A program made the translations under genes and the position numbers. Positions 1 to 43,976 of a stretch of 45,768 bases of DNA are shown here, in pieces. Numbering within the stretch: position 1 is the stretch's first letter; each line of letters begins with the position of its first letter. Origin of the DNA: an uncultured Muribaculaceae bacterium (GTDB lineage: Bacteria > Bacillota_I > Bacilli_A > RF39 > UBA660); assembly GCA_964551965.1 (NCBI GenBank), contig CAZKFB010000005.1, positions 1 through 45,768 of the forward strand, given 5' to 3'. Below the pieces are notes generated by a model. That model saw only the letters and a list, made by a program, of their open reading frames with translations. It was not told where the DNA came from and did no database searches.

Positions 1-404
1 TATTCATTAGATTTGATTCTTTCTCTTAATTGTCTAACAGACAAACTTAGATTATCTATAGTATGAACATAATAATTGATAATATTTATATCACTAAGAG
101 GGATCAATTCAGAATAATGACTCCATGTTAATTGGTGCGACAATGTTGCACCTTTTTCTATTAAACAATAGAACTGCCTAAAGCGTTTTAAATTTGAAAC
201 TGAAAATCCTTTTCCCAACTCACTAGTTAATTTAATCGAATACTCTTTAATTATCTTCTCACCATAATGTTTGCCAGCTTCTGCTAGCATTTTACCAACA
301 TTATAATATGTGTTTAAGTCACTTTTATTTATCGAATAGTTTTTGACTTTTTTATTTATCTCATTATTCATTAGTTCTTTTTTGATTTCATTATAATAAT
401 TCAT
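1..404 (-). CDS. DUF1016/YhcG-family protein, N-terminal part (runs off window edge)
   Basis: Not in ORF track. ATG at 404, just after the comEC stop (418); open to the edge: MNYYNEIKKEL...YYNVGKML...YGEKIIKEYSIKLTSELGKGFSVSNLKRFRQFY...LTWSHYSEL...SVRQLRERIKS, typical YhcG N-terminal motifs. Confidence 0.85.
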   Translation of the reverse strand, partial: MNYYNEIKKELMNNEINKKVKNYSINKSDLNTYYNVGKMLAEAGKHYGEKIIKEYSIKLTSELGKGFSVSNLKRFRQFYCLIEKGATLSHQLTWSHYSELIPLSDINIINYYVHTIDNLSLSVRQLRERIKSNE

Positions 405-36926: not shown

Positions 36927-37594
36927 TTATAAATTAACATTATGATAAACATTTGTTACATCTTCGATATCTTCTAATAAAGATAATAATCTTTCAAATA
37001 CTTCAAGATCTTCACCTTCTAATGTAACATTCTCTTTTGCATACCAACCAATTTCATCTATTGTATATTCTATATCTTTAATTTGACTTTCTAGAACATC
37101 TTTTACTTTAGAAGCATCGCTTGGATTTGCGGTAATAACAACTTCTCCATCTTCTGATTCAAAATCGATTATTTCAATTCCTTCATTTAAAATACTCTCA
37201 AAAATCGGATCAGAATCATCACATTTAAAACCAATGACAGCTTCATAATTATAATTATATGATACTGAATTAGTAACACCTAAACTTTTATTAATTTTAT
37301 TAAACATTTTACTATCAATGTAGATTGTCCAGGTCCAAAACCTTCATAAGATAATTCTTGATAATCATCATTGCTAGCTCCTTTAGCTTTATCAATAGCA
37401 CGATTAATAATATCACTAGGAACTTGTTGTCTCTTAGCTTTTTCAACTACTCTCTTTAAATTAATATTTGTATCTATTTCGGGATTACCTTTAGCAGCTA
37501 AATATATTTCTTTAGCAAAAGTTGAATATAACTTAGCTTTGGCTGCTCCTGTTTTCTGAATACTTGCTTTTCTAACTTCATATGCTCTTCCCAT
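36927..37594 (-). pseudogene. yebC: YebC/PmpR family gene split by a frameshifting internal deletion
   Basis: N-part (MGRAYEVRK...YEGFGPG..LIVKCL) and C-part (FNKINKSLG...SVSY...LEDIEDVTNVYHN) in different frames; conserved TDN..RT segment missing. Confidence 0.8.
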
Positions 37595-37617: not shown

Positions 37618-39351
37618 TTACATTTTTTCTACTTCTTCAATACCTAATGTGTCTAAAAGATTATGTAAGATATTATAAACTAATCTTGATACGCCAATGT
37701 AACTTGCTTTAATATCTTCATTAGTCTCATTCATAATATTGTAATTAGTATAGAACTTATTATATAAACTACATAGTTCATATAAGAATTCACATATGTA
37801 ACTTAAATTAACTTCGCGATAACAACTAGTTAATGTTCTTGGTAATTCAGTAATCTTAACTAAAATATTTAATATATCTTCATTTGGAATTAATTTAATT
37901 TCACTACTATTATCACCTATTTTATTAATTAATGATTTAATTCTTGTCATTGTATAAACTATATAGATTCCCGTTTTCCCTTCAAATGAAGTAAATTTAT
38001 CAACATCAAATATATAGTCAGTTTCACGATTAGGCAAAAGATCTGAATACTTTAATGTTGCAACAGTTAATTTATTAGCAACATCTATTCTCTCTTCACC
38101 TACAATATCTTCTTTAATCTTTGGTTCAATTGTATCATAAACTAATTTTATTAATCCTTTTAGACTCATAACGCCACCATCACGAGTTTTAAAAGGTTTC
38201 CCATCAGGTCCATTAATTGTACCAAATCCATTAAATCTAAAATCAAAATCTTCAGGTACTAAACCAGACTTCTTACATGCTCTGAAAGTTTGTTCAAAGT
38301 GAAGTCTTTGTCTTTCATCAACGAAGTACCAAATACCATCAGGTTTAAAATCTTGTAATCTTTGGATAACAGTTGCTATATCTGTTGTATCATATCCAAC
38401 AGAACCATTACTCTTAACTAATATTAATGGAGGCATCTCTTTTTTATCATCATCATTTTTAACATGCATGATTAATGCTCCATCACTCATTTTTGTTACA
38501 CCTTTAGATTTTAAGAATTCTAAAGCATCATTGACATATAGATCAGCATCTGATTCTCCATAACTATAATCAAATTTACAATTTAAATAATCATATACTT
38601 TATTACAATCCTCTTTACTAACATTAACTATATGTTTCCATAAAGCTTTAATACCAGGATCTCCCTTTTGGAACTTCTCAGTAAATACTCTTGCTTCTTC
38701 AGCATACTTTTCATCTTCTTTTGAACGTTTACTAGCACGAGGATAATAAATTCCTAAATCTTCACTTGTAACTGGTGATTCTACAGGATAAGGTCCAGTA
38801 TAATTTTCATCAAAATAAGGTAACTCCGGATTATTCTCTTGAATCTCACGAATAACTAGACCAATTGGTGTTCCCCAGTCTCCCCAGTGAACATCACCTA
38901 TAGATTCATCTCCAAATACTTTAATCAATCTTCTTACTGCTTCACCAATATTACATCTCAAATGACCAACATGTAATTCCTTAGCAATATTTGCTCCACC
39001 ATAATCAAGCACGATTGTCTTATGTTTATCACTCTTATCAACGAAAACATTAAAATCATTAATACCTTCATTGGAATATTTTATTAATACTTCCTCTTTA
39101 AAAGTTAAATTAATAAAACCTGGTCCTTGAATATTAATATTCTCAAAATAATTATCTATTTTTGATACGATTTCTTCAGCTATTTCGCGTGGATTTTTTC
39201 CATACTTCTTAGCTAATGGCATTGCACCATTAAATTGATATTGACCAAATTCTTTCTTATTAGAAACTTCTAATTTAACAGCAATACCTTCATAATTTAA
39301 TTCTTTTAAAATTTCGCTTAAATATAATTCTGCTTCCCTAATTAAACTCAT
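37618..39351 (-). CDS. argS: Arginine--tRNA ligase
   Basis: GPGFIN, NIAKELHVGHLR (HIGH), GDWG, KPFKTRDG, DALR-like C-terminus. Confidence 0.96.
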   Translation of the reverse strand: MSLIREAELYLSEILKELNYEGIAVKLEVSNKKEFGQYQFNGAMPLAKKYGKNPREIAEEIVSKIDNYFENINIQGPGFINLTFKEEVLIKYSNEGINDFNVFVDKSDKHKTIVLDYGGANIAKELHVGHLRCNIGEAVRRLIKVFGDESIGDVHWGDWGTPIGLVIREIQENNPELPYFDENYTGPYPVESPVTSEDLGIYYPRASKRSKEDEKYAEEARVFTEKFQKGDPGIKALWKHIVNVSKEDCNKVYDYLNCKFDYSYGESDADLYVNDALEFLKSKGVTKMSDGALIMHVKNDDDKKEMPPLILVKSNGSVGYDTTDIATVIQRLQDFKPDGIWYFVDERQRLHFEQTFRACKKSGLVPEDFDFRFNGFGTINGPDGKPFKTRDGGVMSLKGLIKLVYDTIEPKIKEDIVGEERIDVANKLTVATLKYSDLLPNRETDYIFDVDKFTSFEGKTGIYIVYTMTRIKSLINKIGDNSSEIKLIPNEDILNILVKITELPRTLTSCYREVNLSYICEFLYELCSLYNKFYTNYNIMNETNEDIKASYIGVSRLVYNILHNLLDTLGIEEVEKM

Positions 39352-39368
39352 ATTAAACACCTGCACAT

Positions 39369-39396
39369 ATTCTAACACTTAATTCTCTATTGTCAA
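39369..39396 (-). promoter_or_regulatory. Sigma-A promoter of argS
   Basis: TTGACA-16-TAGAAT with TG extension. Confidence 0.65.
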
Positions 39397-39434
39397 ATAG
39401 TTTTTATACTAAAAAAAGTGCTTTAACACTTTTT

Positions 39435-40598
39435 TTATTTTCCTAATACAGTTAGTAAACTATAGTATTCATTATCTACTTTAACAAATAGGGAAATATC
39501 ATCAGGAGCATTAACTTTAAGTAAAGCATTTCCATCTACTTCATATGAATAAACTAAGTTATTATATTTATTTACCATTAGTAATGTTACTTTTTTATCT
39601 TTAAAATCAACACTTACATATTCTCCCATAAGTGATATATCAAAATCATCTTCATAGATTTCTGCTTTATCTAATCCACTTACTATAGTTTCTGTATTTA
39701 TGTTCTCAAATAATGAATAATCATAGTTATCCATACACTTATTAATATCATAAGAAATTGCTCCATTATAATAGTCTACTGATTGAGCAATATAATCTGA
39801 TTCTTCTAAAGAGAAATTGATATTATGATTAATTTTACTTGTATCAGTTGTAATTGAATGTATTTTACCTAAATAATCCATTTCAAGAACTATATTCTTT
39901 ATATTAGAATTATTAAATCTTCTTGTATTATATTCTGCTAATATACGATTATCTTTAACTAAATAACCACTTAGATAATCAAAATCTAAATAGAAATTTA
40001 AATTATTATCTCCATCAAAACCTCTTATTATAGAATTATTATTATTAATATTTCCCATTAAGATAATGGAAGACTTATTATTATCTTTTATTTCTCTTAG
40101 ATCAAAATCATTTACAAAGTCATTTAATGATTCAGTAGCAATACTTGTTGTTGATCTTTCGCCACTAGAAGACTCTAAAGTAATAACATTATTACTATTA
40201 TTATATAATCCAATTACTGGAATAATATGCATTACTGACTCTTTGTCTTCAGCAACTTTAACATCATTTATATATAGAGAAACACTTTCTTTATTCATTG
40301 TATTAAAAATAACAATAGCTGATAAAGGACTTATACCATAAGGATTTACCATTACATAAGGATTATTCAATGAATAATTTCCATTTTTTGCTATATCCTT
40401 TAATTGTTCATCAACATTTTCTTGTTTTCTCAATAGTTCAGATAGATTATTATCTAAGTATGTATTATAGTTCTTAAAATAATTGTCCGTATTAATTAAC
40501 CGATTAGATAAAAGAACAGTTAAAAATATCATTGATATTCCAAATATTAAAAATACGATAAATATCATTGATGCACTTACTTTATTATTCTCTTTCAT
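39435..40598 (-). CDS. Membrane-anchored protein with arylsulfotransferase N-terminal Ig-like domain
   Basis: N-terminal TM; NPYVMVNPYGISPLSAIVIF...HIIPVIGLY...N.ITL; too short for a full ASST propeller. Confidence 0.7.
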   Translation of the reverse strand: MKENNKVSASMIFIVFLIFGISMIFLTVLLSNRLINTDNYFKNYNTYLDNNLSELLRKQENVDEQLKDIAKNGNYSLNNPYVMVNPYGISPLSAIVIFNTMNKESVSLYINDVKVAEDKESVMHIIPVIGLYNNSNNVITLESSSGERSTTSIATESLNDFVNDFDLREIKDNNKSSIILMGNINNNNSIIRGFDGDNNLNFYLDFDYLSGYLVKDNRILAEYNTRRFNNSNIKNIVLEMDYLGKIHSITTDTSKINHNINFSLEESDYIAQSVDYYNGAISYDINKCMDNYDYSLFENINTETIVSGLDKAEIYEDDFDISLMGEYVSVDFKDKKVTLLMVNKYNNLVYSYEVDGNALLKVNAPDDISLFVKVDNEYYSLLTVLGK

Positions 40599-40670
40599 AT
40601 TACCACTCTCTATTCTAATAAAATTATATCTTAGTAATTGAAAAAAGTAAATTATTTATTTTCAAACATG

Positions 40671-40698
40671 AAAAAACTCTAGCCTGATAAACTAGAGT
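40671..40698 (-). terminator. Terminator of candidate ncRNA
   Basis: ACTCTAGTTT-ATC-AGGCTAGAGT followed by a U-tract (two U-G pairs). Confidence 0.85.
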
Positions 40699-41018
40699 AA
40701 TTTCAAGTTTTGAATAGATACCAATTATTATTATCAGTAATAACCAGCACTCATAACTTCTTGTGAGTTTTCTTTCTCAATAACACGTGTATACTTAGTC
40801 GAAGTTATAGTCAATAAGACATTCGATAATATAAACAAATAATAAATCTGGTAGTCTATCAAGATTACAAGTAACCATGAATCAACATACTTATTTATTA
40901 ATGTTTATAGAGTAGTTAAACTAAAAATAAATTAACATTTAAAATGTTAGAAGTATAGTTTTATTAACATAAAAGTATACAAGAAATTAAAATCGTTAAC
41001 TACTTCATTATACTAAGT
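40671..41018 (-). ncRNA. Candidate large structured noncoding RNA (~345 nt)
   Basis: Perfect promoter, four nested stem domains with G-U pairs, intrinsic terminator, no substantial ORF. Confidence 0.7.
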
Positions 41019-41024
41019 AACTTT

Positions 41025-41053
41025 ATTATACTTAGTAATTAGAAAATTGTCAA
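41025..41053 (-). promoter_or_regulatory. Consensus sigma-A promoter
   Basis: TTGACA (41053-41048), 17-nt spacer, TATAAT (41030-41025). Confidence 0.85.
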
Positions 41054-41059
41054 TATATG

Positions 41060-43162
41060 TTAGTCACTAAAATCAAAAATGACTTTATCTTTGTCAAGTT
41101 TAAGTTTAGCATCAAAACTTTTTCCATTTTTGGAAATAAAACCATTTATTTTTGATGTTATTCCATCATTTAATAGGCTTTCTGCATGTCTTTTAGATAT
41201 TACACGATTACAAATAACTGTATTAATTTTAAAAGAACAATTCTTATAATCTTTACATCCGTAAGCATATCTGTTCTTTACAACATCATTTCCACATATT
41301 GGACATTTACCTATAATATCACCATAGAATCCAGTATCTTTATCTTTTTCAATTGGATGATCTTTATTTTTGAATATTTCACTTATTTCATCAGTAGCTA
41401 TCTTGATAGAATCATTTACTGTTATTTCTTCTCTAAATACCTTTTTTAATGCTTTACCCATTTCACTAGTCTTATATTTATCCATAGATATATCCATTTG
41501 ACTTAAAGATTCTATTAAGTATATTCCTTGATTTTGAATAGTATAAACATCTTTATTAAGTGCTATATATTCTGAAGAAATGGCATTCTTAATTATTCCC
41601 GTTCTCGTAGCTTCAGTACCAAGTTCCAAACCTTCGAATATTGCCTTGTAATCTTCTGTATCATCTACTTCTTCAGAATTTTCTTCTAAAGCTTTTTTAT
41701 CTTCTTTAAATGGATTCTTTAAATAATTGTTTAAAGTTTCAATTGTATAATGTTTAGGAGGAGTTGTTTCCTTTTCTTTTGGCTTAAAATTAATATTAAC
41801 TTTTTCACCAATACTCAAATTAGGTAAGATTTTATCTTTAGTTGATGCATCATCAAATTTTGTCCATCCGGGAGTAATAATGATAGTTCCCTTTAAAGTA
41901 AATTCTTCTTTGTCCCCACACTTTATTTTTATTTCGGTCTTTTCAACTGTACAATCTTCACTGCAGAATACGGCTACAAATCTTTTAAATACAGTTTGAT
42001 AAACTAAAAATTCTTCTTCCGTTAGATTCTCTTTTTTAGGAATCTTATAAGTTGGTGTTAAAGCTGAATGTGATTCAATCTTAGAATCATCAAATATTGT
42101 TTTCTTATCTTTAAACTTAACTGGATAACCTATTTTAGATATATTATTTAAAATAGTTTTAATCTTATCTTTCTCAGCTACTGCTAAATACTCGGAATTC
42201 GTACGAGGATAAGTTAAATATCCACTTTCATATAATTTTTGTACTATTGATAGAGATTTATCCATCGGCATCTTATACTTTTTACCTAAATAGTTTTGTA
42301 ACTTAGATAAAGAATATAGTTTTCCTGGATTTAAAGTATCTTTCTTTACTTTTTTATCAGTTACTATAGCATCTAAACTATTTAAAGTTGAACAGTAATC
42401 TTCAGCTTTCTTTATATCTTTCTTATCAAACTTTTCTTTACTATTAAGTTCTATTTCTTCATTTTTAGTTAATTCATTACTACTTATTCCATAATACACA
42501 TCTGGTTTGAAATTCTTTATTGCCATATCTCGATCATAAATAGCTTTTACAATAGGAATAATAACTCTCCCTACTCTCAAAAGAGTACCTGTCTTTAATG
42601 TTGCATATCTAGTTAGATTAACACCATAAAGCCAATCAATATAAGTTCTTGCAAATCCTTCATTAGCTAAATTATCATATTCAGTTTCATCTTTTAAATC
42701 ACTTAATCCAGCATTTATAGTTTCCGGAGTTTGATCAGGAACCCATAATCTTACTTTTTTCTTTTCTGATTTCAATGCATTATCAACAATTAATCTAACA
42801 ATTACTTCTCCTTCACGATCAGCATCGCCAGCATTTACAATTGTATCGACATCTTCTCGATTAATTAAACTTTCAATTGTATTATATTGTTTTAAAACAC
42901 CGGGATCAATTTGTTTATTATTACCTTTTTTTAAATTAAATTTAAATTTATTTGGAAAGCATGGAATATTATCCATTGTCCATTTTCCATCAGTTGGAGT
43001 CTCACCGTAATCCTCAATATCAGCTAATGTGAATAAATGACCGAAAGTATAGGTAACAATATATTTATCATTAGTATAAAAGCCATTATTGTTTTTCATA
43101 TTCCCAATTGCATTAACAATGTTTCGTGCAAGTGATGGTTTCTCTGCAATAATAAGAATCAT
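41060..43162 (-). CDS. topB: Type IA DNA topoisomerase (topoisomerase III-like)
   Basis: IAEKPS, GHL, AGDADREG, LTYPRT active Tyr, LGTEATR, C-terminal CPICG zinc ribbon and F.SK.GK.F.AKL repeat. Confidence 0.9.
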   Translation of the reverse strand: MILIIAEKPSLARNIVNAIGNMKNNNGFYTNDKYIVTYTFGHLFTLADIEDYGETPTDGKWTMDNIPCFPNKFKFNLKKGNNKQIDPGVLKQYNTIESLINREDVDTIVNAGDADREGEVIVRLIVDNALKSEKKKVRLWVPDQTPETINAGLSDLKDETEYDNLANEGFARTYIDWLYGVNLTRYATLKTGTLLRVGRVIIPIVKAIYDRDMAIKNFKPDVYYGISSNELTKNEEIELNSKEKFDKKDIKKAEDYCSTLNSLDAIVTDKKVKKDTLNPGKLYSLSKLQNYLGKKYKMPMDKSLSIVQKLYESGYLTYPRTNSEYLAVAEKDKIKTILNNISKIGYPVKFKDKKTIFDDSKIESHSALTPTYKIPKKENLTEEEFLVYQTVFKRFVAVFCSEDCTVEKTEIKIKCGDKEEFTLKGTIIITPGWTKFDDASTKDKILPNLSIGEKVNINFKPKEKETTPPKHYTIETLNNYLKNPFKEDKKALEENSEEVDDTEDYKAIFEGLELGTEATRTGIIKNAISSEYIALNKDVYTIQNQGIYLIESLSQMDISMDKYKTSEMGKALKKVFREEITVNDSIKIATDEISEIFKNKDHPIEKDKDTGFYGDIIGKCPICGNDVVKNRYAYGCKDYKNCSFKINTVICNRVISKRHAESLLNDGITSKINGFISKNGKSFDAKLKLDKDKVIFDFSD

Positions 43163-43235
43163 TTAAAGCCCTCCAAATCGTATATCTCTATTATATCAAC
43201 TTTTATCAAATTAAAAAAGCGGAGATTTCTCCACT

Positions 43236-43976
43236 CTATAGATTATATTCAACACATTCATAAGTGTTCGGAATATCTATATTAGAATTAGAACATATGA
43301 TATATATATTTTTATCACTTAGATTTAAATTATAATCCGTTGTAATAATCTTTATATTAGCAAAATATTTTGATAATAATTTTTTAAACTTCTCAAATTT
43401 ATCAATCGTATTTTCATGTAAGATATAATTAAATGATATATATTTATCTTTATTCAATATTCTATTTAAATTAAAGATAAACCTTTCCTCAAATATCATA
43501 TCTAATGGTTCATTATCTGTATATAAATCTACAAATATTCCATCATACTTTTTATTTGTCTTGATAATATATTCATAAGCATCCGTACAAAAAATACTTA
43601 ATCTTCTATGGCTTGGATCAAATTCTTCATATAGTTTATCTAAATATAAATATTCAAATGATATATCTATTAATTTTTCGTTTATTTCAATAACATCCAT
43701 TGTTTTATCAGGATATTTACTAATATAGTATTTAGGGTAAGTGAAACCACCTCCTCCAAGTACTAATACTGAATTAACACCTCCAAGATTTGATAATACA
43801 TCAAATAACTTAGGATAAGCATCATAGATATCAAACCTTTTATCTTCATCCATATATGAAAGTGATTGATAAGAATTAGAAGACATGATAGTAATTATTC
43901 TTTCATTATTAATATCAAGTTCTTTTAATTGATAATGTTCATCAATCGATTTACTATTTAAAACATTAATACTCAT
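43236..43976 (-). CDS. Spermidine-synthase-like SAM-dependent transferase
   Basis: VLVLGGGGF, DVIEIN, DAYEYI, KYDGIFVDLY. Confidence 0.78.
   Translation of the reverse strand: MSINVLNSKSIDEHYQLKELDINNERIITIMSSNSYQSLSYMDEDKRFDIYDAYPKLFDVLSNLGGVNSVLVLGGGGFTYPKYYISKYPDKTMDVIEINEKLIDISFEYLYLDKLYEEFDPSHRRLSIFCTDAYEYIIKTNKKYDGIFVDLYTDNEPLDMIFEERFIFNLNRILNKDKYISFNYILHENTIDKFEKFKKLLSKYFANIKIITTDYNLNLSDKNIYIICSNSNIDIPNTYECVEYNL

Follow-up and report, generated by a model that had tools for sequence, protein, structure and literature searches.

The stretch analysed here, the window, comprises 45,768 nucleotides (nt) of contig CAZKFB010000005.1 (assembly GCA_964551965.1), deposited under an uncultured Muribaculaceae bacterium. 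The element in question lies on its minus strand, between a topB-like topoisomerase gene and a gene for a membrane-anchored protein with an arylsulfotransferase-type domain, where a promoter and an intrinsic terminator enclose a candidate gene for a structured noncoding RNA (ncRNA). The 3' part of this predicted RNA matches the PGK RNA of Rfam (RF03040). The PGK motif takes its name from the pgk gene downstream of it, whereas the gene downstream in the window is not pgk.

The transcription unit and its predicted fold

The promoter is the sole site with the full 12/12 score among 46 promoter-like sites in positions 39000-43500, an AT-rich region where such sites are as frequent as in shuffled sequence (46 vs 40.5 expected). 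Judged from this promoter, transcription would start at about 41019-41017, 43 nt past the topB stop codon with no terminator in between, and the unit ends in a terminator-like hairpin (40698-40676, minus strand) followed by a T run. Only one open reading frame (ORF) of at least 30 amino acids (aa) lies within the unit (40734-40862, minus strand, 42 aa, TTG start). The original prediction, made by eye from the sequence, had described a promoter and a terminator bracketing a noncoding stretch, and this description holds for the ~349 nt. A small protein encoded by the 42-aa ORF was rejected, as close relatives (loci L008, L005 and L009) contain in-frame stops across the same stretch.

The minimum-energy fold of the unit yields the four domains (D1 to D4) of the original prediction at the same coordinates and additionally pairs the 5' end with ACUAAGU in the loop of D3. 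We refer to D3 and D4 as P1 and P2, respectively (Table 1). The folding energy corresponds to z = -2.47 for the minus strand and z = -3.18 for the plus strand; because the plus strand scores better, energy alone does not fix the strand. We assign the RNA to the minus strand because of the orientation of the promoter and terminator and because of the many G-U pairs. The latter had been the earlier argument for this strand, and G-U pairs are also frequent in the alignments of relatives described below.

Table 1. Features of the RNA unit and the flanking genes, in window coordinates
Feature	Position	Strand	Details
Upstream gene (context)	41060-43162	-	Topoisomerase, topB-like; Pfam Topoisom_bac and Toprim
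Promoter	41025-41053	-	-35 TTGACA 41053-41048, 17-nt spacer, -10 TATAAT 41030-41025; score 12/12
Predicted primary transcript	40671-41019	-	About 349 nt, bounded by promoter and terminator
PK1, 5' strand	41012-41019	-	UACUUAGU, extreme 5' end; pairs with 40792-40799
D1	40911-41004	-	Three-way junction: stem 41004-40996 / 40919-40911, hairpin 1 40980-40953, hairpin 2 40949-40933
D2	40830-40909	-	Long irregular hairpin, from folding
P0	40810-40820	-	Small hairpin GUC-UUAUU-GAC; conserved CGAAUG (40825-40820) just before
RF03040 match	40724-40815	-	PGK RNA, Rfam type Cis-reg; model positions 1-92; 50.8 bits, E 2e-5
P1 (D3)	40752-40809	-	UAUAACUUC 40809-40801 / GAAGUUAUG 40760-40752; encloses junction, P1a and P1b
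PK1, 3' strand	40792-40799	-	ACUAAGUA, in the junction enclosed by P1
P1a	40780-40792	-	Self-complementary AUACACGUGUUAU, core ACACGUGU at 40790-40783
P1b	40764-40779	-	Hairpin UGAG-AAAGAAAA-CUCA, conserved A-rich loop
P2 (D4)	40720-40748	-	Hairpin with 7-nt loop CUGAUAA 40737-40731
Linker	40701-40716	-	Conserved UAUUCA and AAACUNG boxes
Intrinsic terminator	40671-40697	-	Stem CUCUAG/CUAGAG, loop UUUAUCAGG (UUAUCAG 40690-40684), U tract 40676-40671
Promoter of downstream gene	40623-40651	-	TTTACT-17-TATAAT; score 10/12
Downstream gene (context)	39435-40598	-	387-aa membrane-anchored protein with Arylsulfotran_N Ig-like domain

Covariation and long-range contacts

Nineteen full-length relatives from the window's clade were aligned with MAFFT, and pairing was compared with that in 500 shuffles. 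In this set, pairing over the drawn structure amounts to 82.4%, whereas the shuffles give 75.0% and none of them reaches the observed value; covariation scores 0.232 and never exceeds 0.099 once the partners are slid. The D1 stem is 92.4% paired with four pairs changed on both sides, hairpin 1 of D1 95.7% with five such pairs, P2 83.5% with eight, and the terminator stem 99.1% with five. P0 is 96.5% paired with alternation between GU, AU and GC, and other clades have longer P0 hairpins made of different letters. Hairpin 2 of D1 is not conserved (54.5% paired); other hairpins take its place in relatives. The MAFFT-based counts were low for P1 (44%) and D2 (58-72%), which we attribute to misalignment of the P1 3' strand and of D2 and not to a failure of these helices. 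Because of this misalignment, P1 was recounted on an alignment of 60 diverse cores (A3) and by anchored extraction, and D2 by folding single sequences.

In A3, pairing reaches 90.7% against 79.2% in shuffles (0/500 reaching it), and the covariation score is 0.336 against at most 0.138 with slid partners. P1 is 85.2% paired with five pairs changed on both sides, P1a 83.3%, P1b 98.9%, and P2 95.7% with six pairs changed on both sides. Anchored extraction yielded numerous distinct complementary P1 strand pairs among the relatives. The D2 segment, folded alone, forms one long hairpin in 14 of the 19 clade sequences, with outer-stem letters that differ in each of them; L003 and L019, which had wrong anchors, and L018, L021 and L037 stand outside this count. 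RNAalifold, left unaided, recovers P1b, P2 and the terminator, and 13 of the 18 pairs are changed on both sides. As judged from the aligned relatives, D1, hairpin 1, P0, P1, P2 and the terminator stem all covary. Stem covariation across homologues had been proposed as a check of the original prediction, and compensatory changes are present, with pairing above the shuffled control and covariation above the slid one.

Hairpin 1 of D1 (40953-40980) holds a mid-stem C-C mismatch (ACUUU / AAACUAU) throughout the clade, and the pairs flanking it covary. This mismatch may be a conserved non-canonical feature.

The earlier proposal that the 5' end (ACUUAGU) pairs with ACUAAGU in the D3 loop is strongly supported by fully compensatory variants in relatives. 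In the window, the complementarity extends to 8 base pairs (41019-41012 with 40799-40792). Because the 3' strand sits inside the P1 junction, the helix (PK1) crosses P1 and forms a pseudoknot. PK1 is 100% paired in all 19 clade sequences and is near-invariant there, with only U-A and U-G alternating. In distant members, both strands co-vary, as in CCUAGA:UCUAGG (L081, L082), GUUUAG:CUAAAU (L092), GCUUAG:CUAAGC (L085, L087), AGUCCU:AGGACU (L084), GUAUCUUGA:UCAAGAUAC (L097) and AUCUCGGU:ACCGAGAU (L099). An automated pass over 73 distinct cores, 66 of which have a promoter scoring at least 10/12, found at least seven contiguous pairs between the 21 nt after the -10 element and the junction in 61 of these 66, whereas the mean with shuffled 5' segments was 5.7. 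The five cores with fewer pairs are L050, L066, L079 (the rule chose another promoter), L083 (interrupted helix) and L091; for the second copy in L089, the rule took the promoter of the first copy. The covariation thus shows PK1 to be real, with the first 7-9 nt of the predicted RNA pairing with the P1 junction.

A second long-range pairing in the original prediction, between the D2 loop and the linker, did not survive the comparison. The complementary letters are present in the window (AUAGACUACCA : UGGUAUCUAU) but are not kept in relatives. Pairing is 63.6% against 60.6% in shuffles, a level reached by 35 of 500 shuffles, and the UACCA:UGGUA half is unpaired in 13-15 of the 19 sequences and overlaps and competes with P2. 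We noticed instead that the P2 loop CUGAUAA and the terminator loop UUAUCAG are exactly complementary. The P2 loop never varies among the 73 cores; in 62 of them, a hairpin that carries TTATCAG in its loop, on one of 36 distinct stems, and a T run after it are found 39-183 nt further downstream. Because the loops of ordinary terminators are not conserved, a loop-loop kiss is the simplest reading, and the P2 loop probably kisses the terminator loop. Exact complementarity and invariance suggest this contact; covariation is unavailable where both loops are constant.

The PGK motif within a larger unit

The Rfam match is a borderline one in the window itself. A default-filter scan of the whole window at gathering scores gave no match; the PGK motif emerged only with laxer filters, at a score that equals the gathering score exactly, and an E-value scan of the region returned it together with only four weak, chance-level matches. 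Homology is secured by relatives, which score 54-94.5 bits, and by our own covariance model R1 (124 positions, built from the 60 cores), which matches the window at 40701-40824 on the minus strand with 78 bits (E 2.3e-9). The Rfam match spans D3 and D4. The window and the PGK motif align end to end and have in common a P1 stem that surrounds an internal loop and the GAGAAAGAAAACUC hairpin, and then P2 with its CUGAUAA loop. The PGK model covers about a quarter of the unit and is without the 5' box, PK1, the 5' domain, P0, the P1a pairing, the linker boxes and the terminator with its conserved loop.

The RNA had been thought possibly undescribed, and this claim falls for D3 and D4, although the match covers only 92 of the ~349 nt. 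An Rfam hit to a known class had been named as the result that would remove the novelty. Such a hit exists over these 92 nt, whereas the label attached to it, a cis-regulator of pgk, does not fit the locus. The unit is thus not wholly new, its 3' core being the PGK motif. What is new here is how far the unit extends, that its 5' end forms a pseudoknot, that the terminator appears to belong to the fold, and that the cis-regulatory label does not suit it. The PGK motif owes its name and its Cis-reg type to a reportedly constant position directly upstream of pgk. The motif was published in the supplement of PMC5737381 (Weinberg et al. 2017, Nucleic Acids Research) and is not mentioned in the main text of that paper. 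No discussion of it was found in the main texts searched; the supplements of PMC5737381 and PMC8040213 may bear on the novelty.

RNase P RNA, transfer-messenger RNA (tmRNA), 6S RNA and signal recognition particle RNA were rejected as identities for the locus. None of them matches it, and because the window's genome carries all four elsewhere (contigs C36, C38, C29 and C45), the RNA is none of these housekeeping RNAs. The original prediction had already set tmRNA and RNase P aside, in agreement with this result.

Of 21 further genomes of the window's genus, 17 have a single RF03040 hit each, as does one genome from a different genus; in 25 genomes of other families, it was not found. When the hits of the relatives were aligned with 330 nt upstream and 260 nt downstream, conservation was seen to span the whole unit, beyond the 92 nt of the Rfam model. 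The order is promoter, 5' box (A/G)CUUAG at the predicted +1, 5' domain, CGAAUG and P0, PGK motif, linker with UAUUCA and AAACUNG, and finally the terminator, with a constant loop (UUAUCAG) on a variable stem. Wherever a relative's locus is intact at the 5' end (18 of 18), a TTGACA-16..19-TATAAT promoter, the 5' box, the core and the terminator come in this order. Among 60 loci matched by an exact-pattern scan in which each species was represented by one genome, 58 are genuine (L048 and L060 are chance hits). Most of the 58 keep the unit from promoter to terminator, about 285-450 nt, and they comprise 53 distinct full-length sequences. Nearly all are from gut or rumen metagenome-assembled genomes titled Bacilli, Firmicutes CAG:582, Clostridium CAG:914, Tenericutes or Mycoplasma, and one is titled Muribaculaceae; we take the host family, which comprises uncultured, small-genome bacteria of the gut, to be RF39-type. 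A phage origin was rejected, as the pattern scan of viral contigs, limited to exact pattern matches, gave 0 hits.

The 5' domain differs by clade, and D1 and D2 are confined to the 19 sequences of the window's clade. An extra conserved hairpin, UAUUUAAAAUUAUGGAGAGUAAUUUUAAAUG, lies between P2 and the AAACUAG box in the clade of L020 and L023 and is absent from the window's clade. In a survey of the family with one genome per genus, RF03040 was found in 20 of 151 genomes and R1 in 26 of 151. A class-wide sample gave R1 in 2 of 13 family genomes and the window's own, and in 0 of 137 genomes from 25 other families. Some genomes hold two or three copies of the RNA, some of them in tandem, each with its own promoter. 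Tandem complete copies lie ~350-520 nt apart in L089 (G167:C33), L091 (G125:C16), L022, L028 and L042; in L089, each copy has its own promoter and the terminator loop of the first copy is degenerate (GAUCAG).

Expression, neighbouring genes and competing readings

Four RNA-library runs contain this stretch in the form of contigs, and gaps in three of them (X16, X17 and X18) are not evidence of absence. Over 1.9 kb, the only sequence in X17 is one contig of 281 nt at 40707-40987, and X18, from a different study, contains a 296-nt contig at 40707-41002. In X15, a contig that begins in topB ends at 40686, inside the terminator, and another covers 40604 and below; the bin between them has a depth of 0.51 versus 20-32 on either side. 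Such coverage is consistent with a discrete and fairly abundant RNA whose 3' end lies at the terminator, and with the next gene being transcribed from a start of its own. Of the discrete transcript (41018-40671) in the original prediction, confinement to the RNA is seen in X17 and X18, whereas the contigs show neither strand nor true ends.

The genes that follow the RNA differ among clades. PGK is downstream in 12 loci, all in one clade, a PFL-like protein with its activase in ~25 loci of the window's clade, and a 118-aa protein without a Pfam family, after EF-P, in 13 loci. LPG-synthase-like, Obg-like and ArgRS-like genes occur elsewhere, and the arylsulfotransferase-like protein is downstream in the window and three relatives. 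In every clade examined, the RNA terminator is followed, ahead of the next start codon, by another promoter, for example a perfect TTGACA-17-TATAAT before pgk (L029, L071 and L079) and TGnTATAAT before pflB. The earlier claim that the downstream gene has its own -10 element and that the RNA is free-standing agrees with the 10/12 promoter in the window and with the gap between the X15 contigs at 40604-40686.

Further observations concern these neighbourhoods. The conserved protein of 117-121 aa (N-terminus ..EILKYCPNYYNIVNFDF) follows the RNA in one clade, usually with EF-P upstream (L020, L023, L031, L033, L039, L045, L047, L052, L057, L061, L066, L070 and L078). In the pgk clade (L029, L071 and L079), the pgk promoter overlaps an inverted repeat, AAGTG...CACTT, which may be a pgk operator independent of the RNA. 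A Spo0A-type response regulator is encoded near the RNA in the same clade (L043, contig URVV01000024.1, 1656-2417), which suggests that these small-genome gut bacteria may sporulate.

We consider the locus to be a free-standing, family-restricted structured ncRNA gene and not a pgk leader, with a probability of roughly 70%. It has its own promoter, its own terminator and conservation that is independent of its neighbours, and, more weakly, the RNA-library contigs indicate that it is transcribed. The main rival is a cis-regulatory leader or riboswitch whose core would sense a signal, such as a glycolytic intermediate, and whose terminator would serve as the expression platform for the downstream gene. 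Rfam types RF03040 as Cis-reg, the gene directly downstream is pgk or PFL-like in the loci counted above, a same-strand gene follows within 45-130 nt in most loci, and the conserved terminator loop recalls terminator-embedded aptamers (excerpts of PMC6478431). We nevertheless think this rival unlikely, as the downstream gene has its own promoter after the terminator in every clade examined, at least six unrelated gene classes follow the RNA, and the RNA contigs break between 40686 and 40604. Moreover, the RNA is retained in the window's genome (81% complete), where no PFL-like gene was found and pgk sits on a different contig (C30). We also noticed no conserved antiterminator pairing in the alignments, which were not searched systematically for one. 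One strategy of the 2017 survey was to cluster intergenic regions by their downstream gene (excerpts of PMC5737381); the PGK motif was probably found in this way, and because of this clustering, the pgk link may be built into the family.

A structured 3' untranslated region (UTR), or a processed 3' end of the upstream mRNA, topB in the window, would explain why the predicted RNA start follows the topB stop codon so closely without a terminator and why the X15 contig runs unbroken from topB to 40686. This seems quite improbable to us, since a perfect promoter separates topB from the RNA and a promoter is present in 18/18 relatives complete at the 5' end, the upstream gene varies by clade (topB, EF-P and others), the X17 and X18 contigs hold the RNA region without adjoining topB sequence, and the conserved 5' box begins at the predicted +1 and pairs internally. 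A DNA-level element (operators or promoter architecture) or chance structure in AT-rich DNA could likewise be imagined where promoter-like sites occur at shuffle frequency, P1a is a DNA palindrome and CTGATAA/TTATCAG is an operator-like inverted repeat. The covariation largely refutes this reading, to which we give hardly any credence: compensatory changes retain the pairing in D1, hairpin 1, P1, P2, PK1 and the terminator, the frequent G-U pairs would be A-C mismatches on the opposite strand, RNA contigs cover the unit, and the letters of the palindrome vary by clade, unlike those of a conserved operator.

Several observations weigh against a free-standing RNA gene. In two independent clades, the gene immediately after the RNA is one of central carbon metabolism (pgk and pflB, respectively), as would suit a cis role through conditional termination. 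The RNA evidence consists of contigs, without strand, mapped ends or abundance, and as the X15 contig joins topB to the RNA without a break, some of the signal may stem from topB read-through. The folding energy is unremarkable and is better on the other strand, and the kissing loops and most of PK1 are invariant within the window's clade and hence uninformative there. A search of shared neighbourhoods for a protein partner found no protein family common to all clades. The patchy spread (26/151) speaks against an essential housekeeping role, or alternatively reflects divergence past the detection of the model.

If the locus is a free-standing RNA gene, a sigma-70-type consensus promoter of its own would drive synthesis of the ~349-nt RNA, which would stop at the unit's own intrinsic terminator (41019-40671, minus strand). 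The conserved 3' core (P0, P1 with P1a and P1b, P2, linker and terminator) contains the PGK motif, and D1 and D2 form a peripheral 5' domain specific to the window's clade, replaced by different 5' domains elsewhere. PK1 would close the molecule and hide its 5' end, and the kiss between the P2 and terminator loops would provide a second closing contact. The product would presumably act in trans as a stable RNA whose conserved core binds a protein, a small molecule or another molecule of the same RNA as its partner. RF03040, filed as a 92-nt cis-regulator of pgk, would then be re-read as the core of an independent RNA gene of 285-450 nt, which illustrates that annotation can be misled when a motif is named for the gene that follows it. 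That a genome of ~1.2 Mb retains an RNA of ~350 nt behind a perfect promoter suggests a real function.

The P1a element raises the question of a second copy as the partner. In 67/73 cores, the P1a position, which lies between the junction and P1b, contains 8 nt or more of self-complementary sequence, and its central hexamer occurs in seven perfectly palindromic forms (CAAUUG, CACGUG, UACGUA, GCAUGC, GUAUAC, CAUAUG and GAUAUC). Taken alone, P1a has a computed energy of 0 to -3 kcal/mol as a hairpin and of -10 to -21 kcal/mol as a self-duplex. A hairpin accounts for the outer pairs of P1a and not for the self-complementary central four letters, since a 4-nt loop needs no complementarity. Palindromic pairing is a known dimerisation route of natural RNAs, and kissing loops are likewise an intermolecular motif of homodimers (excerpts of PMC12990946). 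We tentatively propose, with clear doubts, that the PGK motif may form the core of a free-standing RNA, restricted to one family, in which the 5'-end pseudoknot closes the molecule and P1a, perhaps together with the P2 and terminator loops in trans, pairs it with a second copy. Six of the 73 cores are exceptions to the palindrome, and the distant members L097 and L099 have a plain hairpin with a 7-nt loop at the P1a position; both facts speak against a dimer. If the proposal were true, the natural RNAs that form homodimers or multimers, as OLE, ROOL and GOLLD do, would gain a new member of 300-450 nt from small-genome gut bacteria.

Among known systems, the self-assembling OLE, ROOL and GOLLD RNAs and the HYER ribozymes, which dimerise through palindromes, resemble the window RNA in being large, conserved and intricately folded bacterial RNAs, and its covarying self-complementary P1a and complementary loops resemble the intermolecular motifs of RNA homodimers (excerpts of PMC12990946 and PMC12286853). 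The window RNA differs from all of these in that it is shorter (about 290-450 nt across relatives) and has no match to their Rfam families, and its oligomerisation is conjecture. The raiA motif was found in the same 2017 survey in "potential 5' UTRs", where the authors doubted a cis role from the gene arrangement (excerpts of PMC5737381), and is an abundant free-standing structured RNA of unknown function (excerpts of PMC12968392). It shows no sequence or structure match here and is widespread in two phyla, whereas the window RNA was found in one family. HMP-PP (thiS-motif) riboswitches have an intrinsic terminator with conserved nucleotides that seemingly belong to the folded core (excerpts of PMC6478431). 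The window RNA, in contrast, conserves the terminator loop, which would dock on P2 without disruption of the stem, and the genes after RNAs of the window type are mutually unrelated, each with its own promoter.

Elsewhere in the window, a YebC/TACO1-family gene (36927-37594, minus strand) is split into two overlapping ORFs in different frames, one at 37280-37594 with the TACO1_YebC_N domain and one at 36927-37307 with the second and third domains. A frameshift, an assembly error or a genuinely broken gene could each explain the split.

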